A stretch of DNA of 64,000 nucleotides from contig JAZDHZ010000014.1 of assembly GCA_043805415.1 (NCBI GenBank), positions 10,393 to 74,392 of the forward strand, read 5' to 3'. A model generated the notes under the pieces. The model searched no databases. It was not told the DNA's origin and worked only from the letters and a program-made list of their open reading frames with translations. The translations under genes and the position numbers were made by a program. Below are positions 25,960-49,944 of the stretch, one piece after another; the first letter of the stretch is position 1; every line of letters starts with the position of its first letter. The stretch is from Candidatus Omnitrophota bacterium (GTDB taxonomy: Bacteria; Omnitrophota; Gorgyraeia; B26-G9).

Positions 25960-26667
25960 TCATCTACTTTTTTTAATTTTTGGCAAATCCCAAGCCGTTA
26001 TTATGCCAAGAAGTCCTTCATCTTTCTTACCGTTCTCAGTAATAAAAACAGCGCCTAATCTTCGTCCTTTTTCGATATAATCAAAGAACATTTCTTCGAT
26101 ATCATAGACATTTAAGTTTTTGCTAACAAAGCGGTATTCATTGTCTGCATCCTGTTGAATAAGCTCCTCTAACTCTCCAACTGTATTCTGCACTATGATA
26201 AATTCTTCTTCATCTTCTGGCACAAATGAAGCCACCCAGCAGGTAACCACCCTTTCTGAAAAAAGCCCTAAAAATTTGCCTTTTTTATAAACAGGCACGT
26301 GCGTATACAACTTCTCTTTCATTACTTTAATAACCGCACTTATTTTGACTGTAACCTCACAGGTATATACATTTTTTATGGCAATTGTTAAGACGGAAGG
26401 GGGTGAAACTAATCTAAGATATATGTCTTCAATCTTTTTGATTGCTTCCTCGGTTGGCACAATAAGAGGGACCCCATGGGATAATTTATTTCTTATATCC
26501 CCTAATTCTTTTAGCTCTTCTGCTTTTGCCCTAACCACCCTATTTTTTTTGCCTGCCGCTTCAACTACTTCATAAAACTTCATTCCCTTCATATTTGTCA
26601 ATCCCTGCAAATAATCCTCTACTTTCCCAAATATCTCTTTATATTTTTCGTTTAAATTTGAACTCAC
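25960..26667 (-). CDS. HEPN-like (R-x4-H, DUF4145-type) N-terminal domain fused to a CBS-domain pair
   Basis: Motif GDIRNKLSHG at residues about 57-66 (R-N-x3-H). Residues about 110-230 show two CBS-like units (HVPVYKKGKFLGLFS and LGIITAWDL). Confidence 0.5.
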   Translation of the reverse strand: MSSNLNEKYKEIFGKVEDYLQGLTNMKGMKFYEVVEAAGKKNRVVRAKAEELKELGDIRNKLSHGVPLIVPTEEAIKKIEDIYLRLVSPPSVLTIAIKNVYTCEVTVKISAVIKVMKEKLYTHVPVYKKGKFLGLFSERVVTCWVASFVPEDEEEFIIVQNTVGELEELIQQDADNEYRFVSKNLNVYDIEEMFFDYIEKGRRLGAVFITENGKKDEGLLGIITAWDLPKIKKSR

Positions 26668-26800: not shown

Positions 26801-26950
26801 CTAACCATTTCCAATTGGATTCCAATTCTCCAATATCCCTACCACATAACTGTATTTTCTTTTCGGATTACCTATGTTCTTTTTAGCTATAACTGCAAAT
26901 GCCTCTTTGATTTTCCTTGAGCCATATTGTTTTGTTTTTTTTGCATGATT
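26801..26950 (-). pseudogene. DnaD-like (DDBH2 YxxxIxxxW) C-terminal gene fragment, copy A
   Basis: Minus-strand reading ...KQYGSRKIKEAFAVIAKKNIGNPKRKYSYVVGILENWNPIGNG-stop. No space for a full gene upstream. About 85-90 percent identical over about 115 bp to the copy at 32895-33020. Confidence 0.45.
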
Positions 26951-30418: not shown

Positions 30419-31309
30419 TTACATAGTTCTATATACATCTTCTTCACACAACTTAAATTTCCCAAAGTAATCCAATAATCTTAAAAAATATTCCCTGAAT
30501 AAATTTTGACAAGAAACATATTTTTGAAATCTATCATCAAAGCTTAAACGAGATACCCCGGAGTGAATTATTTCGTTTCTTAAATCTATAATATCTGTTA
30601 ATGATGGATTCATCCCCACATTTCCAAACATTTCGGTAAGTAAGGTTTTAAAGCCTTTGTGCTGTGGCCTGCCACTTCGCCTTCTCATCATCGCCAACGT
30701 CGTTCCTGAAGGATAAAAATTATTATTAAAAATAGGATATCCGATATGACATGCATATGTATGCTTTAAATTTTCCAATAAAACAAACATAAACACAAGG
30801 CGAGCCTCTATAGGAAGATTTGGTTTTTGACTCAAAACATAATAATCTAAAATTACGTTCAATTGCCTGGATTGCCGCAACTTTCTATAATTAGGCCAAG
30901 CTTTTTCAAGATATAGCTTAGTTGCTTTTCCATGTATTTCTATAATTTTCCAAGATGTTTGGACAATTCCATTTCCAGATAGCCATTTTTCCTTTTCCCC
31001 ATAGATCTCTTTGTGACAATATACTTCTGAACAAGTAATAAACGATAAAAGCTCTGCGATATCACGAATTAAATCTCTTACAGTATCAACTTGAGACCTC
31101 GGAACATCTTTAATTGTAAGATCTGTTGTGAAATGTGTTTCTCCTTCAAAAATTTTTCCACGAGATGTACTATATCCTTCTTTTTGTCGCAATTCGACAA
31201 CAAAACCATCCAAATTAGCGGAAATAAAATTCTGAAAGTGCCAGCCCGGCCCTATTTTCTCAGTGCCAATTAAAAGACAATTCGCAAGAGTTCCAATGAA
31301 ATCTGTCAT
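30419..31309 (-). CDS. Hypothetical protein with C-terminal HEPN-like R-x4-H motif (DUF4145-type)
   Basis: Motif IIDLRNEIIHSG near the C-terminus; 43 bp downstream of the PD-(D/E)xK-like gene, probably co-transcribed. Confidence 0.45.
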   Translation of the reverse strand: MTDFIGTLANCLLIGTEKIGPGWHFQNFISANLDGFVVELRQKEGYSTSRGKIFEGETHFTTDLTIKDVPRSQVDTVRDLIRDIAELLSFITCSEVYCHKEIYGEKEKWLSGNGIVQTSWKIIEIHGKATKLYLEKAWPNYRKLRQSRQLNVILDYYVLSQKPNLPIEARLVFMFVLLENLKHTYACHIGYPIFNNNFYPSGTTLAMMRRRSGRPQHKGFKTLLTEMFGNVGMNPSLTDIIDLRNEIIHSGVSRLSFDDRFQKYVSCQNLFREYFLRLLDYFGKFKLCEEDVYRTM

Positions 31310-31352: not shown

Positions 31353-32894
31353 TCAAAAATCCTCTGACAATGCTTTTCTTTCCATATCAAAACAGCGATA
31401 AACCACAGGGATTGAAAAATTCTCCCTAATATATTTCATGTAACTTTTTGTATCATCGTCAGGGAAAGAATCTCCAATAATAATTAGCTTTTTAGCCCTC
31501 TCAATATCTGGCCAATAAGCATACTCCATGATTTGTCCCAACGCTTGTCTTATGCAAAGTTTTGGCATCTCAGTTTTTATCTCGAAATAATGCCATTCGT
31601 TTTCAAGTGTCCTAGCCTTTATATCGATTCTCCCCTTTTCTTCTTGGACATTAACATACTCATGCTTATATTGTTCTCTTAGAAGCAAAGTAAGGGCATT
31701 TTGCATCTTGCTGTGATATGGATCGTATTCAACTTCTTTTTTAAATACAACTATTCTTTTTTTTTCACTTCTCTTCTTTCCCTCGTCTTCATCGTCAAAA
31801 CCTTCTTTCAGAAGAAAATTTGTCTTTTTAGGAATCAGCTTGAACCTGCTTGTTGTTATATTAATATCCTCATCTGAAATCTCAATCAACTCGTCAAATT
31901 GTTTCACGTTATCAAATCTAAATTTTATATTAAAAATTAATTCTGGAGAATTAAAATTTTCTTGAAAAAGAACGGGATTACCGCCAACATTTTTTATATC
32001 AGCAATTAGCTCTTCTATCCAGCCTTTTGTTTTATACATTTTATAGACTATAGTTGCTTCTTCGGAGGAAAGGCAACTAATTTCCTTTATGTCTCCAACA
32101 TAAAATCTCTTCTTTGCGCCGCTGATTGTATACAACGCAACATTATAAATATTACCCACATGTTTTCCTGATTCTACCCTGAAAGGCTCGAGAAATGCAT
32201 AATGAAATCCATCAAGAATACGAGACTTGTCTAAAAGCCATTCCTCATGCCCATATCCATATTGTGCCTCGTAAGAGTTTGAATCAGAACTCTTCCCTTT
32301 TGCTCCTGAAGGAAATTTCCACCCCTCTGTATTCCAGCAAATCCTTGCTACTTTATTAGTAGTCCCAAATTCCTGCTGCTCTTTTCTTAGTTGTATGATT
32401 TTTTCAACATATTTTTTATAAAAATGAGAATCAAGGAAAGCGATGCCTTTAGGTTTATATTCCTCAATCATAGAATCAATAACAGGCTTTACATTGTTTA
32501 AAAAATCTTTAAGGTTTGCTAAATAATGATTGCCGTCATAATTTCTATGCCACTTATTTTTATTACCCTGTTTTTGAAATCCACCAAGCCTTTCTGCAAC
32601 CTTACGCAAAAACTTTGCCTTCTCTTGAGAATCTTGACCTGATATTTCAATATAAGAATTACCTTTTTCATCAACTACAAATCCTATATTATGTATCTTC
32701 TCCTTCCAGTCTCCGCCATCCCAAAACGATACTTGCAAATATTTATCATTACCAATAAACCAATATCTTTCTTCGAATCGTTTCTTATTATTAATTTTTC
32801 TTGGAACAAAGAAAAAATTATTATCTTTTTCATGCAACTCGACTAGGAAGTCAAATATTTTTTCATGTTTTAAAACCGTGCTTCTACTGCCCAT
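31353..32894 (-). CDS. Hypothetical protein with C-terminal PD-(D/E)xK nuclease-like motif
   Basis: C-terminal GRIDIKART...WHYFEIKT fits the D...(D/E)xK restriction-endonuclease-fold pattern; N-terminal 350 aa unassigned. Confidence 0.45.
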   Translation of the reverse strand: MGSRSTVLKHEKIFDFLVELHEKDNNFFFVPRKINNKKRFEERYWFIGNDKYLQVSFWDGGDWKEKIHNIGFVVDEKGNSYIEISGQDSQEKAKFLRKVAERLGGFQKQGNKNKWHRNYDGNHYLANLKDFLNNVKPVIDSMIEEYKPKGIAFLDSHFYKKYVEKIIQLRKEQQEFGTTNKVARICWNTEGWKFPSGAKGKSSDSNSYEAQYGYGHEEWLLDKSRILDGFHYAFLEPFRVESGKHVGNIYNVALYTISGAKKRFYVGDIKEISCLSSEEATIVYKMYKTKGWIEELIADIKNVGGNPVLFQENFNSPELIFNIKFRFDNVKQFDELIEISDEDINITTSRFKLIPKKTNFLLKEGFDDEDEGKKRSEKKRIVVFKKEVEYDPYHSKMQNALTLLLREQYKHEYVNVQEEKGRIDIKARTLENEWHYFEIKTEMPKLCIRQALGQIMEYAYWPDIERAKKLIIIGDSFPDDDTKSYMKYIRENFSIPVVYRCFDMERKALSEDF

Positions 32895-33020
32895 ACAGGC
32901 CTACTTTCTCCAATATCCCCACCACATAACTATATTTCCGCTTCGGATTGTCTATGTTCTTTTTGGCTACGATCGCAAACGCGTCTTTGATTTTCTTTGG
33001 GCCGTATTGCTTAGACTTTT
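32895..33020 (-). pseudogene. DnaD-like C-terminal gene fragment, copy B
   Basis: Minus-strand reading ...KQYGPKKIKDAFAIVAKKNIDNPKRKYSYVVGILE...; a direct repeat of copy A about 6.1 kb away. Confidence 0.45.
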
Positions 33021-33236: not shown

Positions 33237-33566
33237 TTAAACCTTGAAACAGTGATATCCTTTTAAGGCGTCCAAAGCTGCGTAAGCCCAGGAACGATGT
33301 AGTTGCGAAGAATGTCCGTTTCCATCATTTAATCCGGCAATAGCCTCTACCGACCAAATCAGATTACCAAACTTTTCAGACATATAAGCATTCCCCATAT
33401 CTTCTTGTTTAGCTTTTTGCTTTAGATCTTCAGACAATGTTTTAATTTCAGTACAAATTCTATAATTATCACAAGAAGAATCATGCAACATACTACCAAC
33501 TAGGCACCTCATATGTTCCAGCGTGCTTTTTATATCCATACTATCCTCCTTATAGGATGTCTCCAT
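33237..33566 (-). CDS. Hypothetical protein (109 aa)
   Basis: ORF only. Confidence 0.3.
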   Translation of the reverse strand: METSYKEDSMDIKSTLEHMRCLVGSMLHDSSCDNYRICTEIKTLSEDLKQKAKQEDMGNAYMSEKFGNLIWSVEAIAGLNDGNGHSSQLHRSWAYAALDALKGYHCFKV

Positions 33567-33670
33567 TCTATATCCCGATTGTGATTATCTTTTTGATTAC
33601 CCCTAAATTTCTAATATTCCTACATCTTTAAACGTGTCGATCGTGCTTTCCAATCAGTGTAATCATTCTT

Positions 33671-34720
33671 TCACCAACGAAAACCAGCACCCACAGTAAC
33701 AACTGCTTCATCTTTAGTCTTTAAAAACCTCAAAAACGATAATCCTTCTCCGTCTAATATCTTTCGGGAGAGTTGTAGCTGAGCGCTGATGTTTTTATTC
33801 TGATCGTTTTTTAATTCAAAACTTATACTATCTTTATCAGTCAGCTTTGCTTCCGCTCCAAACGTAATTGCCCGAATATTTCCATTTTCATATTCCACTT
33901 CAAATACCAAGCCGATATCTTTTTTAATTTTCCATTTACCGCAAAGCGTGATTATCTGCTCTTCCGGACTCTTAGCCAAACCAATGCCTAATTCATATTT
34001 AATGTATTTATCTTTAAACACAGCCGCGCTGGTTTTAAAACTAAACACAGAATCAGACTGCAAATCCAAAACATAAGACAATCTGCCTTTATCTTTAATA
34101 TCCCAATAACCTTGAAATGTTAGAATATGAATATTTTTCTCTTTACGGATAAGCTGAGCTTTTTCGTATTGATAAATAATCTGATGCTGTTTGTTTATTT
34201 CCCAAGTTCCTTTAAAAGTAAGAATATCATAGCTGCCTTTTTCTTTTTGAACTCTAAATGTCAGACGATTGGCTTTATCTGCCTGCCATGCGCCTTTAAG
34301 CTGGAGAATATAGATTGATTGCATATTGTCTTTAGTATGAGTAGTAAGGCTAAAAGCTAAGGAATTTTTGGAAGTATCGATAATTTCTCCCTGAAGCGTT
34401 AATTTATCGCCAAGGGTTTCCCTGCCCCATTTATTAAGCTCTAGACAGAGATTATGGTCCTTATCTAAAGTCCAAACGCCTTCGAGTTTTACTTGATGCG
34501 GGATTTCTGTTCCTTCCGGAGTGGGTGCTTTAATAAGGTAAGTGAGTGTATTATCTTCGTCGATTTTGAAGCGGCCATCAAGAACCTGTCTGAATCTGGA
34601 CAGTTCGCTTTTCTTACCGGATTTATCGATAATCAATCGATTATACGGATCAATTTCATAAGTAACTTTTGGGTTATCCTGGCGTTTTGCCATAACCATC
34701 CTGTTTTTTAAAATTGTCAA
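33671..34720 (-). CDS. Hypothetical protein with about five tandem 45-50-aa internal repeats (G-x-W-x-[LI]-[DN]-K-x-x-x-L pattern)
   Basis: Repeat units visible by eye: EGVWTLDKDHNLCLEL, KGAWQADKANRLTFRV, KGTWEINKQHQIIYQY, QGYWDIKDKGRLSYVL, CGKWKIKKDIGLVFEV. Confidence 0.45.
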   Translation of the reverse strand: MTILKNRMVMAKRQDNPKVTYEIDPYNRLIIDKSGKKSELSRFRQVLDGRFKIDEDNTLTYLIKAPTPEGTEIPHQVKLEGVWTLDKDHNLCLELNKWGRETLGDKLTLQGEIIDTSKNSLAFSLTTHTKDNMQSIYILQLKGAWQADKANRLTFRVQKEKGSYDILTFKGTWEINKQHQIIYQYEKAQLIRKEKNIHILTFQGYWDIKDKGRLSYVLDLQSDSVFSFKTSAAVFKDKYIKYELGIGLAKSPEEQIITLCGKWKIKKDIGLVFEVEYENGNIRAITFGAEAKLTDKDSISFELKNDQNKNISAQLQLSRKILDGEGLSFLRFLKTKDEAVVTVGAGFRW

Positions 34721-34839
34721 TTTTCTAAACGCTTAACGCTATGCGCTATTTTTAATGATCAACTTCGTAAAAAACTTTAAATCTTTAAGCTATGCCCCCC
34801 CTTACTTATATGCTCATAGGAATATTAGGTATTTTGTGA

Positions 34840-35802
34840 TTAATTTTTAACCAACGATACTGTGTCACCTTCAATAAGAATCATGTCCTGTCCAGTAGAG
34901 TCTTTACTATATAAAGATACACTACCAACTATTTCTTGGGAATCTGTTGTAAAAGTTATGTCCTCACCTATCACATAAGCATATCTTGTTAATCCAGAGT
35001 TATATAATCCATCTTTTCCCTTAGGATACTGAGAAAACTTTACATCGTTATATTTTGACTTTAAGATATTAACAAACGCTTTTTCAGCATCTGCTACAAT
35101 TTTCTCTTTAGGTAAAGCTGGTTCAGCTAAAATATCATTAAAATCATCATTATAATCAAAAATAGAAATATTTAACTGTTCAATCTTAAAAAAGAACAAT
35201 ATCATTTCATCTGTAATGCGAGACCGTTCCATTTTTGGATATTCGTTTGATAATATTCGAATTCTTTTGTCGTGTGGCTTTATAACTAAGCGTGTCAAAC
35301 TATCTTCTTTTTTTGAAATTCCAACATAATGCAAATGATACTTTGTTAAATCCCGGAAATTATCGAAGCCTTTAATCCCAGGATGCCCCCTCCATTTGTC
35401 AAATAAGAATTTTTCAGTAGTAAACCAATCGACTACTTTAGTTCTTTCTTGTGTCTCCGTATCATTTTCCCATACCCTGATAAGCTTTTCACCAAATTCA
35501 AATTCAAGATCTGTATTTTTAATCGAAACTCCGTGACATTTAAGGATCTCATTAAAATCTATTTCACCTATTGATTTAACATTCTGCGCATAAAAAGTAA
35601 AAGGTGCTTTTAATTTTGATTGAAAATTAGTGCAAATAATATCCTCGTCAATCTCATACTTTCCTTCTTGACGCTGAGCCACCATATATAGGTTACTCTC
35701 TTTCAGAAGTTTTTGCACTTCAGGATCATCTTTTATCCACTCTGCCTCTTGGTTAGATATTGGAGGATAAACAAGTTTTAAAATATTTAGTTGTGATTTC
35801 AT
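34840..35802 (-). CDS. Hypothetical protein (320 aa)
   Basis: ORF only; same strand and close spacing with the flanking genes. Confidence 0.4.
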   Translation of the reverse strand: MKSQLNILKLVYPPISNQEAEWIKDDPEVQKLLKESNLYMVAQRQEGKYEIDEDIICTNFQSKLKAPFTFYAQNVKSIGEIDFNEILKCHGVSIKNTDLEFEFGEKLIRVWENDTETQERTKVVDWFTTEKFLFDKWRGHPGIKGFDNFRDLTKYHLHYVGISKKEDSLTRLVIKPHDKRIRILSNEYPKMERSRITDEMILFFFKIEQLNISIFDYNDDFNDILAEPALPKEKIVADAEKAFVNILKSKYNDVKFSQYPKGKDGLYNSGLTRYAYVIGEDITFTTDSQEIVGSVSLYSKDSTGQDMILIEGDTVSLVKN

Positions 35803-35884
35803 ATTATTTTCCTCTTATAACATTTGAGCTCAGGCAGAGCAAACGCGTAGCGTTTGCGATTGCCTGTAGCGAATCGTTATGCTT

Positions 35885-37039
35885 TTATAATTTTCCAGAG
35901 CTAGCTTTATCTGCTAATATTATAAATGCTAATGCGTCCATTAGAATTAAAAACTTCAAGGCTAATTCACGACATTCAAAATTAGTGAAAATTCCATGAA
36001 GTATTCCATGTCTATTTACTTCGCTTCTAGGGTCAGTAATTTTACTTATGTTACTCCAAAAAGATCCATCTTTTAATTCTGATACAATTACATCTAATAT
36101 TTTTTTGGGATAAAGCAAAAGCTTTCGAGAAATCACTAACTCTTGTAATTTATCAATTTTCTTTTTATATTCCCATCCATCAATTGCATTACCGTATTTA
36201 GCATATAAATAATCTCTAATGATGCCTTCAAATTGTGGACAAATAATGTAAATCGAAGCAACATAATCTTCTTTTAAATAAGCTTGGATTGATTTTTCTA
36301 TATATGAAATTCGATTATTGAAAAAACTTGCCTCTTTCCAGAATGTAATTTTATTATTCCAATAGGTCTCATTGAACTTTTTTTGAATAGTGTCTGCGGG
36401 AGAATCTGTATTAGAATTGTGCATCTCAATAAAAACTTCTGGATAATAATCTGGAGAAGGGGGCCAATTACATTCTTTAAGCTTTTGCATTTTTTCAAAA
36501 GGTTTAATGTTTTTAACAAAATTTCTTTCATAAAGTAATTGTACAATTGGGTATTTGAATTTTAAATCTGCTGGTTTTTTTTCTGAAAAATCAGGGGCAT
36601 TAGGTGAAAAATCAAAAACGAGATGGGGAGTCAAAAAAACTCTATTTAAAAATGCATAAGCACAAGGAATACCATTACTATCAGGTGGAATAATGAATGA
36701 CACATCTGGATTGGGATCAAGCTCGCTTAATTTTAATGTGGTGCCTACCATGTCCTCTGTGAATTCTCCTTCTTTTAGCTTTAATCTATATTGAATATTT
36801 ACCTCTTCATTTAGTTCAACGATATTTTCAATGCTACCGTTTTCTTTTTTAACTTGGTATGCTCTAAAAGAGTTGATTTCTATTGGCAAGTCAGTTTTAG
36901 AAATTTTTTTTAATTCTATTCTCTTTTCAATCTCGGGAATAACGAAAAGGCGTATCATATCAGAAATCGGACGATATTCCATAATTAATGATCGTTGATA
37001 AATAGTAATATTTTCTTTATTTTGGGTATTATTATTCAT
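35885..37039 (-). CDS. Hypothetical protein with C-terminal HEPN-like R-x4-H motif
   Basis: Motif SEVNRHGILHGIF about 45 aa from the C-terminus, in a predicted helical region; N-terminal 250 aa unassigned. Confidence 0.45.
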   Translation of the reverse strand: MNNNTQNKENITIYQRSLIMEYRPISDMIRLFVIPEIEKRIELKKISKTDLPIEINSFRAYQVKKENGSIENIVELNEEVNIQYRLKLKEGEFTEDMVGTTLKLSELDPNPDVSFIIPPDSNGIPCAYAFLNRVFLTPHLVFDFSPNAPDFSEKKPADLKFKYPIVQLLYERNFVKNIKPFEKMQKLKECNWPPSPDYYPEVFIEMHNSNTDSPADTIQKKFNETYWNNKITFWKEASFFNNRISYIEKSIQAYLKEDYVASIYIICPQFEGIIRDYLYAKYGNAIDGWEYKKKIDKLQELVISRKLLLYPKKILDVIVSELKDGSFWSNISKITDPRSEVNRHGILHGIFTNFECRELALKFLILMDALAFIILADKASSGKL

Positions 37040-37513
37040 ATTTTATTAGCATAACATTTAATATAATACCAGTCTGTTTTTCAGTAATTCCCTATTGTTT
37101 TTCTCTTCAACTAACAAGTCTTTGCCTGGAAACATGTCGTATTTTCTGCTTAATATCATGATATTAGCCTAGTCATTAAAATCGGATTTTTCAATTTTAA
37201 GCTTTAAAATCATCTCTTTTTCAAACATATTCTCTTTAAAACGCAGGCACAGAAAGCTGATTGTCATTAATCTTGTCGATTATTTGTCTGATATTCATAA
37301 TGTCCTCTTCCTTTCACAAAAACACTCTATTCCTATAATGCATTGCCTCCTGTTCCAACTAATCAATACTTCAAACAACGTCCCTTTCATCCATTATAGC
37401 TAAGTAATCCATGATAGGAGTTAAAAAATATTCACTATCTATCTTTCCAAAACTTTTATGTATGTCCCCAATATTCCTCTCTAGGTTAAAAATACACTTT
37501 AGGGCTTTGTAAC

Positions 37514-41684: not shown

Positions 41685-43949
41685 TCAGAGAATCCCTACA
41701 AATTCAGCTACAAAATGCAGCTTTAATGAAATGTCACCATCCTTCTGATCAAAAACTAATGGTGAGTATGATTTATTTTTGGGAAGAAGCTCAACTCGAA
41801 TGTTAAAACCATCTTCTCCCTTATGACTTTGATATCCCTTAATTGTATACGATCCCCCCGTATGTGGATCTGGTTCTCCCTGATATTGAAAAAGATAAAT
41901 TCCTCCTCTTTGTGAATATGGTCCTGCAGGATTAGCTTTAAAAATACAATAGTCACCATTTTTTATTCTTGGTTCCATAGAATCTCCAACTGCGCGGACA
42001 ACAAACATCGTCTCATCTAATCCCTTTCGATCGACAAAAACCCATCTATCTTCTTTTACTTCCATCCCATCAGCAAATTTACCGCAGGCAGCAGCTAAGG
42101 AATAAACTGGTAGATATTTACTAGAATCTTCACCCTCTGGAATAACATCACTGAAAAACAAATCAGAAACCAGTCTATTGCCATTAACTGGAGTATCTCG
42201 AATATTTGAAAGCCACTCGTTAGCAAGGCTATCAATTCTATTCTTCCACCTGGGTCCTCTCTCATGCCGATATTCCAAACATGAAATAATTAACTTTAAG
42301 AGTTCCTCTGGATGAAACGGGTTTTTTAAAAATTCCCTTAAAACATCACGAAGTTGCCCTATTGTGAGCGGAACGATATTAATTTCGACCTCTTCATCAT
42401 TTGAGGTGTACCAACAATCTCTTCGAAAAGTTTCCGCAGTATTACTATTAATATCAGGTGCAAGAAAAAGACCATAAACTTCTTTATCTGACTCTTTAAC
42501 TATATCTGCTACATGCCTTCTTACTGTCTCACCTTCAGCTGCTTCTTGTCGTGATGAACTTGTTAGAGTAACTTCAATTACTAAAACAAAATTATCAAAT
42601 TCAAAAATCATATCAGGACCACCTCCAGGAGCTGGATGACGAGGCAGCATATCTTCATCAATAAGAAACCGTCTTGTGTTATGTGCTGGCACAGCAATAT
42701 GGTCAATGGCTAAAAACGCCCTCCACACAATCCACTCCAAATAAGTTGGAGGGTCAACAATATGCTTCATGGCTTGTCGTCTCCCCGTAGCAAAAGCATC
42801 CAAATATTCTAAAATATCAGTAACCGAGTCCTCATGCGCTTGTTCTATTGCAAATTTTTCCTCTTCACTTTGAGCAAATAATTCAATTAACTTATACCTC
42901 TCTTTTTCTAATATTCTAACATCAGTCTCAACTGATAAATTCTCTGCACTTTTCGGAACAGCTTTTCCATCATCTGTTAATTGTGATGCCAACTTTCCAA
43001 TTTCATGCAAAGCAAAAGAAGGATTATCCATTGGCAAAGATGAACCTCGATAAAATTCTTTTAAATATTCCACCTTTCCTTCTTCATGTAAAATCCGCGG
43101 TTCTTCTTCGAGAATAGCTTTTATAATATCAAGTTTGTTTTCCCTTAAAACAATGGCGCCACCTCTAAAAGATAACAATCCGGTCATCCTACTATAACGA
43201 ACTGTAGTATCGGCATAATCACCTAAAGTCCCGAATTGCACCCCGCCCTCAAGCCCTTTAGCTTCTAATATAGCCCTATCAAATGCTTTTAAGTTATTCC
43301 TGCCACTCACTTCACTTCGCCTTTGTCTATATTCAAGAATCTCTTTAACTGTCCTCTCCACCTCAGCAACATCATGTTTTCTAAACAATTGCAAAAAAGC
43401 CGCCATCTCAATTTTTTTTAAACCGCTTTGTTCCCGCTCTCTTAATACAAACAATACTTGCAGCAAGAAAATAAATGGCTTCATTATTTCACCCTGAAAA
43501 CTTGATTCAATCTGTGACGGAATCTCAAGACACCGCAATTGTCTTAAAAAAACATCTGAAATTGCACCACTAGAATCGGCATTCACCAATAGCTTTCCTG
43601 CTGGGGTCAACTCATAAAGCTTCCCCGATAATCCTAGATCCTGACAAAGTTCCTTAAATGAATCCTGAAATCCTTTATTAAATTTATCGGTAACAAAACC
43701 CAGCTTCACAAAAACATTTCTCCATTTCCTTCCAAACCAGGACGGCTCACTTCCTGCAGTGCTTATGATGCCCTCATCATGCAATTTTCTTGTAAACGCC
43801 GCCTCTTGTTCTGCGCCATATACATTTCCCTGAAAATGTTTAGCGAACACAATAAGACCTTCTTGAATCCTATTTGGATTTCGAACAGTTGTATTTCCTA
43901 AATCCCAAACTCTTCTCGGCATAAAACTCCTAGTATGCAACAAATACAT
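41685..43949 (-). CDS. Candidate type IIS restriction endonuclease partner of the adjacent two-domain MTase, with C-terminal LexA/S24-like (GDSMEP) beta-barrel domain
   Basis: 754-aa ORF overlapping the MTase stop by 20 nt (operon). C-terminal about 110 aa contains VGDSMEPRIKNGDYCIF, the S24 peptidase-fold signature. The N-terminal 600 aa is unassigned; calling it an endonuclease is an inference from context. Confidence 0.4.
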   Translation of the reverse strand: MYLLHTRSFMPRRVWDLGNTTVRNPNRIQEGLIVFAKHFQGNVYGAEQEAAFTRKLHDEGIISTAGSEPSWFGRKWRNVFVKLGFVTDKFNKGFQDSFKELCQDLGLSGKLYELTPAGKLLVNADSSGAISDVFLRQLRCLEIPSQIESSFQGEIMKPFIFLLQVLFVLREREQSGLKKIEMAAFLQLFRKHDVAEVERTVKEILEYRQRRSEVSGRNNLKAFDRAILEAKGLEGGVQFGTLGDYADTTVRYSRMTGLLSFRGGAIVLRENKLDIIKAILEEEPRILHEEGKVEYLKEFYRGSSLPMDNPSFALHEIGKLASQLTDDGKAVPKSAENLSVETDVRILEKERYKLIELFAQSEEEKFAIEQAHEDSVTDILEYLDAFATGRRQAMKHIVDPPTYLEWIVWRAFLAIDHIAVPAHNTRRFLIDEDMLPRHPAPGGGPDMIFEFDNFVLVIEVTLTSSSRQEAAEGETVRRHVADIVKESDKEVYGLFLAPDINSNTAETFRRDCWYTSNDEEVEINIVPLTIGQLRDVLREFLKNPFHPEELLKLIISCLEYRHERGPRWKNRIDSLANEWLSNIRDTPVNGNRLVSDLFFSDVIPEGEDSSKYLPVYSLAAACGKFADGMEVKEDRWVFVDRKGLDETMFVVRAVGDSMEPRIKNGDYCIFKANPAGPYSQRGGIYLFQYQGEPDPHTGGSYTIKGYQSHKGEDGFNIRVELLPKNKSYSPLVFDQKDGDISLKLHFVAEFVGIL

Positions 43950-45875
43950 ATTCTAGAACTCTATTAGCATTATCTCCCACTTTATGCCCATGAGTTCCAA
44001 ATGAGTATAGATGTTCTACTTGATGAACAATAACTTCATCTTTATATTTTTTAAGCAAATTAATCATCTGACTCTTCGAGGGTATAGAATTTGATGAATA
44101 CGAAACAACTAAAATGCTATCTTGAAATTTTTGAAACAATGAATCAAAAGCTGAAAAAATAGTATCTTTTGAAGAAAATGGCGTATTGTATTTTTCAAAC
44201 TTTTTTGTCTTTGTATGAAGCTGTATTTTTAAACCTTCCCATTGTCGAGTTAGTCCCTCAATAAAATGATAGCGCCGAGTATAATCATTATCTGAACTCT
44301 TAGAGCAATATGGAGGGTCTATATATACCAAATCAGCCTTAACATCTAATTTGAATATATCACCAGTAAATGATTCATTTTTAAACCCATTATTAAATAC
44401 CGCGTGATTAAAGGCTTCGACATTTTCCAAAAAATGTTGCCTCAAATCAATCTTCATATCTCTTCTTCCATCATCATATTTATGACCAACATAAGTAAAA
44501 ATTCCGCGTGCTCTACGCTTCAAACAGGCTCTATTTAAAGCGGAAAGGGCTAATGCCCTCTTGTATTCATTACCAAGCTGCTCAATTCTACTTCTCATTG
44601 AATCTAAAAATTGATTTTCCTCATCACTAAAATATAACCCCTTAAATGTTGTTGATATAAACTTATTATTTTTGAGATTATATGACAACAATATCTCTAC
44701 ATCTTTTTTATCCAACACGACTTTAGAATTTTGAATTAAAGCTTTGGAAAGTTGACCACAAAAAGACATAAAATCATTACTAATAACTTTTTTCTTTTGC
44801 TGTTTAAACATATACGACACACAAGCGCTACCAGAAAAAGCATCAATAACTGTGTCAAAAGGAAGGTCTTTTACGCAATCCCAAATAAATGGTAAAACCC
44901 TATATTTGCTACCCATAAAACGTGTACCTGGAAATTTCTCTAATATTTGTTTTCCTTGCAAAGAAAAATAAGAAGGCGTCTTTTTCTGCGGCTTAGTTGC
45001 TATAACTATAAGATCTTGCCCTGTTCTCGTTGCTGCATTACAACTAATATTTCGTCGAGTTTTAACTGCCTTATATTGAAAATTATCATACAGCTTACGA
45101 ACAAACTCAGCATTTGAATTGGTCAAAAGAACATAAACGCCTCTACCGACTAATTCAGAAACTAAATCCCTTAATTCAATATGGTCTTCCTCATAAAATA
45201 ATTCTTTTGTGTACCGCTTAAAATCTGAAAAACCTCCAACGGGATAATAAGGTGGGTCAAAAAAGACAAAATCTCCTTCCTCTGCATGTTTTTTTACAAC
45301 ACTAACATAATTATCACAAATCAAATTTACACCCTGCAATGCACGGTGCGCATTAAGCAATTTAACTTCTTCGCAAATTGTTGGATTCTTACGACTTCCA
45401 AAAGGAACATTAAATTTACCTTCTTTATTAACCCGATACAAACCATTATAACAAGTCTTGTTTAAAAAAATAAATCTGGCAGCTCTTTTTACAACACTTA
45501 ATTTATTAGGATTTTGTTGTCGTACCTTATAATAGACCTCTTCGTCGTTCTTATATTTTTTCAATGCCCCTATAAGATTATCAAGATCATCCCTCAAAAC
45601 CTTATAGCAGTTAACCAACTCTTCATTGCTATCAGATAAAATAGCTTTGGCAGGTAACAAACTAAAAAACAAAGCCCCTCCCCCAGAAATGGCTCGAAAT
45701 ATCTCTTATAAGAAGCTGGAACATATTTTTCCAACTCAGGAATAAGCTGTGTTTTTCCTCCAGCCCATTTCAAAAAAGGCTGACCTTTAAACTTTCCTAA
45801 TTTTTTTACTATGTTGTCTTGAGAATTATTCTTCATATACAAATTATCTGCTTTCGTTAATTCCTCTAAACTCAA
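43930..45875 (-). CDS. DNA adenine N6-methyltransferase with two Dam-like (D12 class) domains; reading frame interrupted in a G-run (frameshift or sequencing error)
   Basis: Two DPPY motifs (YFFDPPYYP and YIDPPYCS). The N-terminal [11 protein letters not shown]...YFEPFLGEG lies in ORF 45594-45875 and continues in another frame as (GGGA)[25 protein letters not shown] in ORF 43930-45672. The break is at gggggagggg, 45676-45685. Confidence 0.7.
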
Positions 45876-46159
45876 TATGAAACTCGAAAAACATTACCCA
45901 AAATAATTTATTCTTAAGCTTTATAGTCAGAAAAGAACAACGTTGTTTAATTAATATTGCCCTAATCCATTTTTCTTTTTCAATCAACAGCCATCTTATC
46001 ACTTACTTAAACATCTCTCTTACGCATTTTCTCTGCTTCTTTATAAAATATCTTTAGTCCGTCAATTCCTCGACCCATTACATGGTGTGACAACATCCGG
46101 AATAATCTAATCGCGCTTGCATTGTTATTCTTTATTTCTACCATGTATTGTTTGCTCTA

Positions 46160-46465
46160 TTAACTAATCAATTTATCAAACAACGTCCCACTCTTCCGTC
46201 CTCGAGCGTCAGTTTGAGTCATATTACGAAATGTGCTAAATTTATCGAGGATGTTACGAGCAAGGTCAATCGCGCTAGTACCCTTGGTCCCAGTGCGCAG
46301 AAGAATGGCCAAAAGCTCTGACTTACTCAAAGTTCTTGCCCCATTCTTGAGCAATTTCTCTCTGGGCCGATCATCTACTGGCCAATTCTTTATAGCTTGC
46401 TTATTAACTTTACTAATCTTTTTTTCTTTTTTCATTTTTATTTCCATAGCGAAGATTCTTTCCAA
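46160..46465 (-). pseudogene. RadC N-terminal (HhH) fragment; JAB/MPN domain missing
   Basis: WPVDDRPREKLLKNGARTLSKSELLAILLRTGTKGTSAIDLARNIL matches the RadC N-terminus; the ORF stops after 101 aa. Confidence 0.6.
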
Positions 46466-48184: not shown

Positions 48185-49909
48185 ATGAAAGCAGCAATAT
48201 ATACCCGATATTCCTCGGAAAATCAAAGCGAGAAAAGTATTGATGATCAGGTCAGAGTTTGCAAAAACTATTGCCAAGATCATGATATTATTGTTTGCGA
48301 TGAACATATTTATATTGATGAGGCTGTATCCGGCTCTTTGATCAACCGCCCGGGATTGCAGGCTTTGGAAAGAGCCGCGGAGAGCAAGGAATTTGGCGCG
48401 GTGATTGTCGATGATTTATCCCGATTATCGCGCAGTAATCATCAAATGCTGACCTTGGTTTTAAAATTTAATTATTATCAGGTTACTTTGATCTCAGTTT
48501 CCGACGGTATTGTTACCGACGATGAAAACTCCAAGCTGGGCATTCAGATGCGCGGACTGATTAATGAATTATATTTAGATGATCTGCGCAAAAGAACCTT
48601 GCGCGGTTTGGAAGGTCAGAAATTGCGCGGATTCAGCGGCGGTGAAAATGTTTATGGCTATCTCTCTCAGCCTGTAGGCGAACTAAGACTTAATAAACGC
48701 GGACAAGCAAAATATGAAGGCAGAGTTCATAAAATCAATCCTGATGAAGCGGAAATTGTGCGCAGAATATTTAAAGAATTTATTGCCGGCGATAGTATTC
48801 ATCGCATTGTCCATAGGCTGAATGAGGATAAAATCCCAACCAAAAAACGGCTGATCGGCGGCTGGAATATATCCACTGTGTCGAGAATTCTTAAACATGA
48901 GAAATATATTGGTATTTGGGACTGGAGAAAATATAAGAACGTTAGAGATCCGATGACCGGTAAGAAAAAGGTTATCCGCCGGCCGGATAAAGACCGCTTG
49001 CCGCTATTTCGCGAAGATTTGATGATTATTGATAAAGACTCTTGGGAAAAAGTTCAAGACAGACAAAGCAAACTTAAAGGCACCTGGCCGGTAAGCAAGG
49101 AAAGAAAAACTGCTTGCCAGCAAAAAAGCTATGTACACACCAGCCCCACGCATTTATTCTCAGGATTTATGCACTGCAAACTCTGCAACAGCGCGATTGT
49201 CCTGATCAGCGGCAAAGGTTCAGGGTATTATGGCTGTTATAATGCCAAACGTAAGACCTGCACGAATACCCTGCTGATTTCCCGCAATAAAATCGAAGCA
49301 AAAATCATTCTAGCACTTAAAGAAGAAATCCTGACTTCAGAAAAAATTGATTATGTCTATCAGCAAGTGGAAAAAGCTGCTGCCGCAGGGCTTAATCAAG
49401 TCCCAGAATTAGTTAAGAAAAAGAAAGCCCTGCAATCAAAGCTTGAGCAGGAAATCCAAAATTATCTTAATTTTATTAAACTGGGGAATATGTCTAAAAC
49501 AATATCTGAGGCATTAAACCAAGCGGAAAAACAAAGCGAAGAGTTAAATAAGGAAGTTAATTCCCTGGAATTTCAAAAAGCAAACAGTTTTAAAGCTCCG
49601 CCTAAGGAGTGGATTGATCATCGCTTGGATACTTTAAGAGATACGCTGAATAAGAATGCAGTTGCTTCCGGACTGGCAATTAAGGAATTGCTGGGACCAA
49701 TCAAGCTTGAGCCGATTTTAAGCAAAGACGCTGACTTTTACCAGCTTTTAAGCGATAGCGAAAAAGCATTTAAGCCATATTATGTAGTGCATACAAAAAT
49801 TCAAACCCTTGCGCTATTAGATGATGAGCACAAGGGTTCGAATTGGTTTCAATGGCGGAGAGGCTGGGATTCGAACCCAGGGACCCAGTTGCCCAGGTCA
49901 ACTGCTTAG
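48185..49909 (+). CDS. Large serine recombinase (resolvase N-terminal domain + recombinase + zinc ribbon); ORF tail overlaps tRNA-Ser
   Basis: AIYTRYSSENQ (catalytic Ser region), LSRLSR, recombinase-domain and Cys-rich zinc-ribbon (CKLC...CYNAKRKTC) regions. The last about 19 codons (WRRGWDSNPGTQLPRSTA) are the antisense reading of the tRNA. Confidence 0.85.
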   Translation: MKAAIYTRYSSENQSEKSIDDQVRVCKNYCQDHDIIVCDEHIYIDEAVSGSLINRPGLQALERAAESKEFGAVIVDDLSRLSRSNHQMLTLVLKFNYYQVTLISVSDGIVTDDENSKLGIQMRGLINELYLDDLRKRTLRGLEGQKLRGFSGGENVYGYLSQPVGELRLNKRGQAKYEGRVHKINPDEAEIVRRIFKEFIAGDSIHRIVHRLNEDKIPTKKRLIGGWNISTVSRILKHEKYIGIWDWRKYKNVRDPMTGKKKVIRRPDKDRLPLFREDLMIIDKDSWEKVQDRQSKLKGTWPVSKERKTACQQKSYVHTSPTHLFSGFMHCKLCNSAIVLISGKGSGYYGCYNAKRKTCTNTLLISRNKIEAKIILALKEEILTSEKIDYVYQQVEKAAAAGLNQVPELVKKKKALQSKLEQEIQNYLNFIKLGNMSKTISEALNQAEKQSEELNKEVNSLEFQKANSFKAPPKEWIDHRLDTLRDTLNKNAVASGLAIKELLGPIKLEPILSKDADFYQLLSDSEKAFKPYYVVHTKIQTLALLDDEHKGSNWFQWRRGWDSNPGTQLPRSTA

Positions 49910-49944
49910 CAGGCAGCTCCGTTCGGCCACTCTGGCACCTCTCC
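49853..49944 (-). tRNA. tRNA-Ser (anticodon GCT), long variable arm
   Basis: Minus strand GGAGAGG...anticodon loop CTGCTAA...long extra arm...T arm GGGTTCGAATCCCAG...CCTCTCC-G-CCA. Confidence 0.85.

Follow-up and report, generated by a model that had tools for sequence, protein, structure and literature searches.

Four adjacent genes of an Omnitrophota defense island, among them a solo HEPN protein and a putative GIY-YIG-like nuclease, show no conserved linkage

Do four uncharacterized genes that lie close together and in one orientation within a defense island form a system, or are they simply neighbors? The question is raised by positions 33237-37039 of a 64,000-nucleotide window (the whole stretch of DNA analyzed here), part of a 75-kb contig from a Candidatus Omnitrophota metagenome-assembled genome (MAG; GenBank assembly GCA_043805415.1, contig JAZDHZ010000014.1). 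An initial annotation had placed four co-oriented open reading frames (ORFs) on the minus strand of this region, and both strand and coordinates proved exact: gene A (35885-37039, 384 aa), gene B (34840-35802, 320 aa), gene C (33671-34720, 349 aa from a TTG start) and gene D (33237-33566, 109 aa). Proteins A and B are identical to the entries V1747_03580 and V1747_03575. The explanation favored here, at a probability of about 70%, is that A-D constitute no system or conserved operon, and are instead four independently acquired or evolving genes that happen to be co-oriented neighbors within a low-GC defense island of ~21 kb.

Genomic neighborhood analysis provides the central evidence. Loci around 84 A, 24 B and 7 C homologs, 115 in all, were fetched and searched by tblastn (E <=1e-3) with A-D and six other proteins of the window. 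At none of them were any two of A, B and C found together, and the searches with D and the six other proteins detected no homolog at any locus. Two further C loci, known from gene tables, and one phage contig carrying a D homolog, known from its ORF list, also held no partner gene, and clustering of the neighboring ORFs yielded no conserved partner for A or B. Downstream of the closest relative of A (78% identity), the next genes lie on the opposite strand and encode 72 and 395 aa. The four-gene cluster implied by the initial annotation is thus not borne out; the annotation itself had named scattered homologs with no conserved linkage as the outcome that would refute it, and this is the pattern obtained.

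The four families also differ in size and reach. Family A is rare and consists of 32 clusters, all derived from metagenomes or MAGs. Family B, found in Bacteroidota, Proteobacteria, Actinobacteria, Zixibacteria and other groups, spans at least 518 clusters; family C comprises at least 550 clusters, mostly from Omnitrophota, and family D has 58 cluster representatives. Composition divides the locus in two, with a GC content at third codon positions (GC3) of 0.21 for A and 0.24 for B versus 0.32 for C and 0.31 for D. When the window was compared with the locus of its most similar C paralog (L109, 90% nucleotide identity), DNA homology covered 34792-33651 only, a block made up of C, ~100 nt upstream and 20 nt downstream. 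Each of the four families is distributed independently of the others.

A strong hairpin lies between A and B. Two hairpins had been proposed in this spacer: the first, an 8-bp inverted repeat (GCAAACGC/GCGTTTGC), is present, with a loop of 3 nt rather than 4, while the second is imperfect. The 8-bp repeat is unique in the window, and in the predicted RNA fold its stem is nested in a further 6 + 3 bp to give one stem-loop of ~17 bp (35828-35870, minus strand) with a folding energy of -27.2 kcal/mol (z = -4.08; none of 200 shuffled sequences folds as well). The stem-loop lacks a U tract, and terminator prediction called no site at this position; across the A-D region, no intrinsic terminators and no promoters above chance were detected. 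The hairpin may end or stabilize the A transcript. Together with the difference in composition between A/B and C/D, it backs the earlier suspicion that the genes may belong to more than one transcript.

Comparison with homolog N-termini and the position of Shine-Dalgarno sequences indicated that C and D are shorter than called. The C start is the ATG at 34693 (MAKRQ..., 340 aa, matching its homologs), which places gene C at 33671-34693, and the D start is the ATG at 33539, preceded by AAGGAGG (MDIKS..., 100 aa, beginning at M10 of the 109-aa ORF), which places gene D at 33237-33539. Gene A may instead start at M20 (365 aa), where most homologs begin; residues 1-14 of its structural model have a predicted local distance difference test (pLDDT) score below 50. 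The gaps between genes, described as 83-120 bp, come to 82, 119 and 104 nt with the original coordinates and to 82, 146 and 131 nt with the revised starts.

None of the four proteins belongs to a characterized family by hmmscan against Pfam, NCBIfam, PADLOC and PHROGs, as had been stated from the sequence alone. The PADLOC-DB 2.0 hidden Markov models gave nothing for B, C or D and only a weak PDC-S39 match for A, and PDB sequences searched with the profiles of A, B and C gave no match. In Pfam scans of the alignment members of A, B and D, DUF2934 appeared on three N-terminally extended A homologs, and the remaining hits were noise.

Gene A encodes a protein with a ~230-aa N-terminal region followed by a C-terminal HEPN domain (residues ~244-381, positions 35897-36310 on the minus strand). 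Active HEPN ribonucleases are recognized by an Rx4-6H motif with a polar residue (N, D or H) after the arginine and by an upstream acidic residue, typically in the form E-x3-[KR] (PMC3710099). The HEPN call made from the string EVNRHGILHG is correct. The domain has the all-alpha helical-bundle fold of the superfamily, the string is present, and in an alignment of 30 family members the R343 and H348 of R343-H-G-I-L-H348, the predicted RNase active-site motif (codons at 35996-36013), are invariant in all 30. H344, directly after R343, is conserved in at least 90% of these sequences. Upstream, E271 is invariant within P268-Q-F-E271-G, and position 275 is R or K in most members but not in all. Gene A therefore carries the HEPN hallmarks, since R343 and H348 are invariant, H344 follows R343 and E271-x3-R/K lies upstream.

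The closest known systems are the RNases of the HEPN superfamily, including HEPN/MNT toxins (e.g. 7ae2), RiboL-PSP-HEPN proteins, Abi2/AbiD-F, AbiJ and the C-terminal region of PDC-S39. Weak matches link residues 241-359 of A to two profiles of 615 positions, in both cases at the C-terminal end: PDC-S39, a PADLOC candidate (E 0.002, over 33 residues), and phrog_31613 (E 0.02). No match above curated cut-offs was obtained in Pfam, NCBIfam or PADLOC to the named HEPN families (RiboL-PSP, Abi2, AbiJ, AbiU2, AbiV, Swt1, MAE_28990 and others); A itself matches no Pfam or NCBIfam family at E <=0.1, and none of the 30 members matches a HEPN family at E <=1. The N-terminal region is predicted to contain a long helix, a small beta-sheet, further helices and an invariant WPPSPxYYP stretch; it is new, with no recognized relative. 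Gene A thus differs from the known HEPN families in having no meaningful profile match to them, a new N-terminal region, and no minimal nucleotidyltransferase (MNT), antitoxin or other conserved partner.

In the window, A is bordered by gene B on one side and, on its upstream side, by a 474-bp spacer with no ORF of at least 60 aa. A type II toxin-antitoxin arrangement of the HEPN-MNT kind was considered and rejected: no MNT gene is adjacent, and no conserved neighbor was found in the first 83 A loci. As for an RNA antitoxin, no Rfam family and no tandem-repeat RNA were found near A. The sampled neighbors of A homologs are mixed and include a HEPN/RES-NTD1-RES toxin, a PLD nuclease, a HerA-like ATPase, Fic, a transposase and an HD hydrolase. 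We infer that A works alone, as a HEPN RNase of the abortive-infection or toxin type under the control of its N-terminal region. By analogy with other HEPN proteins that have an Rx4-6H motif, it would cleave RNA independently of metal ions; the ~230-aa region would hold the enzyme inactive until infection, for example, triggers it, and it would then cut RNA of the cell or of the virus in the way of an abortive-infection protein or toxin.

Gene B (34840-35802, minus strand, 320 aa) represents the widespread uncharacterized family described above, and its structural model is confident (pLDDT 89.3). The family alignment revealed conserved HYVG161IS, R171, H177, N186-E187, E240 and Y251-N252, of which Y159 is retained in at least 90% of members and the others are invariant. 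In order and spacing these residues resemble the GIY-YIG set of I-TevI and UvrC (Y-x-G, Arg, His/Tyr, Glu, Asn). The proposed likeness to GIY-YIG proteins consists of a Y-x-G, an Arg 12 residues further on, a His, and a distal Glu and Asn, all in the expected active-site order; a clear first-strand Tyr is not present. The putative core occupies residues ~140-255 (35038-35385, minus strand; Y159, G161, R171, H177, N186, E187, E240, N252).

The best structural neighbors of this central domain are GIY-YIG nucleases (T4 EndoII, R.Eco29kI, I-TevI, the UvrC N-terminal domain and PD-T4-3), and the Foldseek comparison of the B model with the PDB was not significant. An hhalign comparison of the B profile with I-TevI aligned one segment, DAE240KAFVNILKSKYN with ERE75NFWIKELNSKIN, which pairs E240 with E75, at a non-significant score; the UvrC N-terminal sequence gave no significant alignment. 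No Pfam GIY-YIG family was matched by any of 33 B members at E <=10, and the PDB sequence-profile search returned none. We regard B as somewhat more likely than not to be a nuclease, with a putative, divergent GIY-YIG-like core. It may act as a stand-alone DNA endonuclease with R171, H177, E240 and N252 as catalytic set, an assignment weaker than that of A, and its N- and C-terminal beta-rich parts may recognize the target. A stand-alone GIY-YIG protein, PD-T4-3 (9u75), is a known defense gene (PMC9519451).

B homologs, too, are solo. Their sampled neighbors include a dCTP-deaminase-like protein, a CAP12/Pycsar-type TIR protein, an nSTAND3-pentapeptide protein, DUF4238 and a serine recombinase. 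AlbA_2-like ATPase genes, so labeled for their resemblance to the SLFN/AlbA_2 gene of the window, lie upstream of B homologs in 6 of 23 loci. One homolog sits within a prophage-like region with Rad52 and PDDEXK genes, and none was found among the 2.9 million viral contigs of IMG/VR.

How the four genes relate to one another can be read in other ways. A shared strand, short gaps, a place inside a defense island and the lack of any characterized member would suit a novel four-component anti-phage operon, in which a HEPN RNase and a nuclease are joined by a repeat-protein sensor and a small regulator. Such an operon is very improbable given the absence of co-occurrence in the 115 loci, cluster counts as unequal as 32, at least 518, at least 550 and 58 representatives, the difference in composition between A/B and C/D, the hairpin that parts A from B, and a homology to the C paralog locus that ends 100 nt before C and 20 nt after it. 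Restricting the idea to A and B, as a local module of RNase and DNase co-acquired from a low-GC donor and working together in this genome only, makes sense of their adjacency across 82 nt, of GC3 values unlike those of their neighbors and of the nuclease prediction for both. Yet the two are never adjacent elsewhere (84 A and 24 B loci), the closest relative of A has no B beside it, a hairpin with z = -4.1 separates the genes and each family is viable alone, which leaves the module improbable. Hardly any credence is given to C and D as a repeat protein with a small partner: they are adjacent and similar in GC3 (0.32 and 0.31), but at nine other loci the gene that comes after C is not D; it encodes Peptidase_C1, an unrelated protein of 103 or 203 aa, a 41-aa desulfoferrodoxin-like protein or PMT_2, and the phage contig with the D homolog has no C-sized ORF.

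Several points nevertheless weigh against four independent genes of a defense island. Many of the loci are short metagenome contigs, on which a missing neighbor is informative for a part only, namely 35 of the first 83 A loci, which have at least 1.5 kb downstream, and most of the 23 genome loci for B. The missing linkage is also compatible with local co-transcription or functional interplay in this genome; the hairpin lacks a U tract, and no promoter is evident. Finally, A homologs are also found amid housekeeping genes, between SH3-domain genes and dnaB in one case (L083) and beside NAD kinase in another (L032). The last point bears on the further suggestion that A, B or both serve housekeeping or mobile-element maintenance. 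Examples would be a HEPN protein that processes RNA, a GIY-YIG endonuclease of the homing or repair type, or an addiction toxin. Core genes around some A homologs (ribosomal proteins, dnaB; L083), the prevalence of GIY-YIG domains in homing endonucleases and UvrC, and the prophage-like region with Rad52 and PDDEXK genes around one B homolog all lend it something. It is set against a patchy distribution, variable and island-like contexts, the absence of B homologs from the 2.9 million viral contigs and the lack of a conserved antitoxin-like neighbor, and we consider it unlikely.

Within the preferred explanation of four independent genes, A and B add new members to kinds of nuclease-domain proteins that are already known, and both are plausible candidates for single-gene defense nucleases. 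That each founds a new single-gene anti-phage family, one of HEPN RNases with an undescribed N-terminal sensor and the other of highly divergent GIY-YIG-type endonucleases, is put forward tentatively, as a possibility that the odds do not favor. The locus yields two well-defined uncharacterized families with confident models, clear candidate catalytic residues and defense-type neighborhoods: a HEPN family that occurs solo and has a new N-terminal region, and a widespread family of at least 518 clusters with a GIY-YIG-like core. As candidates for single-gene defense, both are cheap to test. It also carries a more general lesson, that co-orientation and tight spacing in a defense island do not imply a system.

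Gene C encodes a repeat protein, although of a less regular kind than had been described. The repetition is real, and hhalign of C segments against each other detects it with a probability of up to 84%. The five regular units of 45-50 aa proposed for it are not found: the five G-x-W cores fall at residues 71, 133, 161, 194 and 251, which places them 28-62 aa apart, and a G-x-F variant occurs at residue 39. The protein is a run of beta-hairpin units. Homologs are strongly conserved (57-95% identity among those aligned), and no signal peptide was found in any of them. The C-terminus is an invariant ...V-x-V-G-A-G-F-R-W-COOH (positions 33671-33710), whose alternating hydrophobics and terminal Trp recall the beta-signal of outer-membrane barrels.

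The C family forms a multi-copy group of paralogs centered on Omnitrophota, with five KJ915 tags, two KKD05 tags and two V1747 tags (the window copy and a second one) in individual MAGs. The genomic position of the paralog P0154, from the same MAG as the window, was not found. Contexts were examined at L107, L109, L110, L111-L113, L117 and L118. A Peptidase_C1 paralog directly follows the C homolog in five loci representing four distinct contexts, and lies two genes further on in one more; these peptidase copies are 81-86% identical to each other, and Lipase_3 sometimes follows further on. Defense genes (HsdR, reverse transcriptase, SduA_C nuclease) are often encoded just upstream of C homologs. 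The remaining contexts are unrelated, and the window has no Peptidase_C1. C would be a lineage-specific, multi-copy, cytoplasmic beta-hairpin repeat protein. A family that is diversifying, multi-copy, often accompanied by a papain-like peptidase and near defense genes might serve Omnitrophota as a lineage-specific module for immunity or predation. Omnitrophota are poorly known and possibly host-dependent, and the amplification of this family in their genomes, in some cases next to a papain-like peptidase gene, may be relevant to how they live.

Gene C is flanked exactly by the two arms of an 18-nt inverted repeat (33605-33622 and 34817-34834; 89% complementary). Its arms were considered as the ends of a mobile element carrying C and rejected, the homology to L109 lying inside the repeats and excluding them. 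The repeat is probably a chance feature of AT-rich DNA.

Gene D belongs to a small family, most members of which are ~100 aa long and share the motif GLDDGNGHxxxQHxxWA. A search of viral contigs with D found one locus, on an IMG/VR phage contig (L116, 3848-6578), where a 105-aa homolog comes after a sigma/regulator-like ORF and immediately precedes the genes for the small and large terminase. D also gives a weak, near full-length match to the phage family phrog_32542 (E 0.009, residues 2-98 on profile positions 4-99 of 103), which is below any reliable threshold. Taken together, these results suggest that D may be a small phage- or mobile-element-associated protein.

The island around the four genes is marked by a GC content of 0.35 between 26 and 47.5 kb, versus 0.40 outside. 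Over ~21 kb it encodes Abi_2, a RadC-N fragment, a double Dam-type methyltransferase, an AlwI-type restriction endonuclease-S24 protein, YfbU and a PDC-S60/DS8-like metallophosphoesterase-STAND protein, followed by A-D. Downstream of A-D lie a 513-aa PtuA-N-like protein, a RiboL-PSP-like HEPN protein, an SLFN/AlbA_2 ATPase and a CBS/HEPN fragment. A large serine recombinase (48185-49944 region, plus strand) overlaps with its 3' end a minus-strand tRNA-Ser(GCT) by 57 nt, and this junction probably marks the end at which the island integrated. A second copy of the tRNA-Ser end, which could mark an att site, was looked for and not found, which leaves the far border undefined. With its low GC, serine recombinase at tRNA-Ser, restriction-modification genes, Abi_2, PDC-S60/DS8-like, SLFN/AlbA_2 and HEPN proteins in one orientation, the region resembles other defense islands on integrative elements, and nothing about it is unusual by comparison with them.

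Some of its genes deserve separate mention. The locus at 41685-45672 encodes a 754-aa AlwI-type restriction endonuclease fused to a C-terminal S24 (LexA-like) peptidase domain, and this gene overlaps by 20 nt that of a 580-aa protein with two D12-class adenine methyltransferase stretches. In the 513-aa protein (31353-32894), residues 9-181 match the N-terminal region of PADLOC PtuA1 (E 7e-34), and scans of the remainder detected neither an ATPase nor a Pfam domain. Weak matches to RiboL-PSP-type HEPN domains were obtained for 25960-26667 and 30419-31309 (E 0.0013 and 0.0044); one of the two is fused to a CBS domain and looks truncated. Counting A and Abi_2, the island holds four HEPN-like genes.

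Traces of rearrangement are also visible. A 115-nt direct repeat (82% identity; 26826-26940 and 32906-33020) brackets a 6.1-kb block of five genes, encoding the 513-aa PtuA-N-like protein, a 296-aa HEPN-like protein, proteins of 130 and 268 aa and the SLFN/AlbA_2 protein. On the minus strand the repeat reads like the end of a protein (...YGPKKIKDAFAIVAKKNIDNPKRKYSYVVGILE), and it may be what had been called an island breakpoint next to A-D. In the spacer upstream of A, 37240-37298 (minus strand) reads MNIRQIIDKINDNQLSVPAF*REYV*, with two nonsense changes, and looks like the decayed N-terminus of a gene of the DUF262/GmrSD type; hmmscan of the fragment gave no match. The same spacer contains one copy of a 68-nt direct repeat (74% identity; 37325-37392 and 46130-46197), the other copy of which lies at the 3' end of the RadC-N (UPF0758_N) fragment gene, suggesting repeated insertions beside copies of one remnant.

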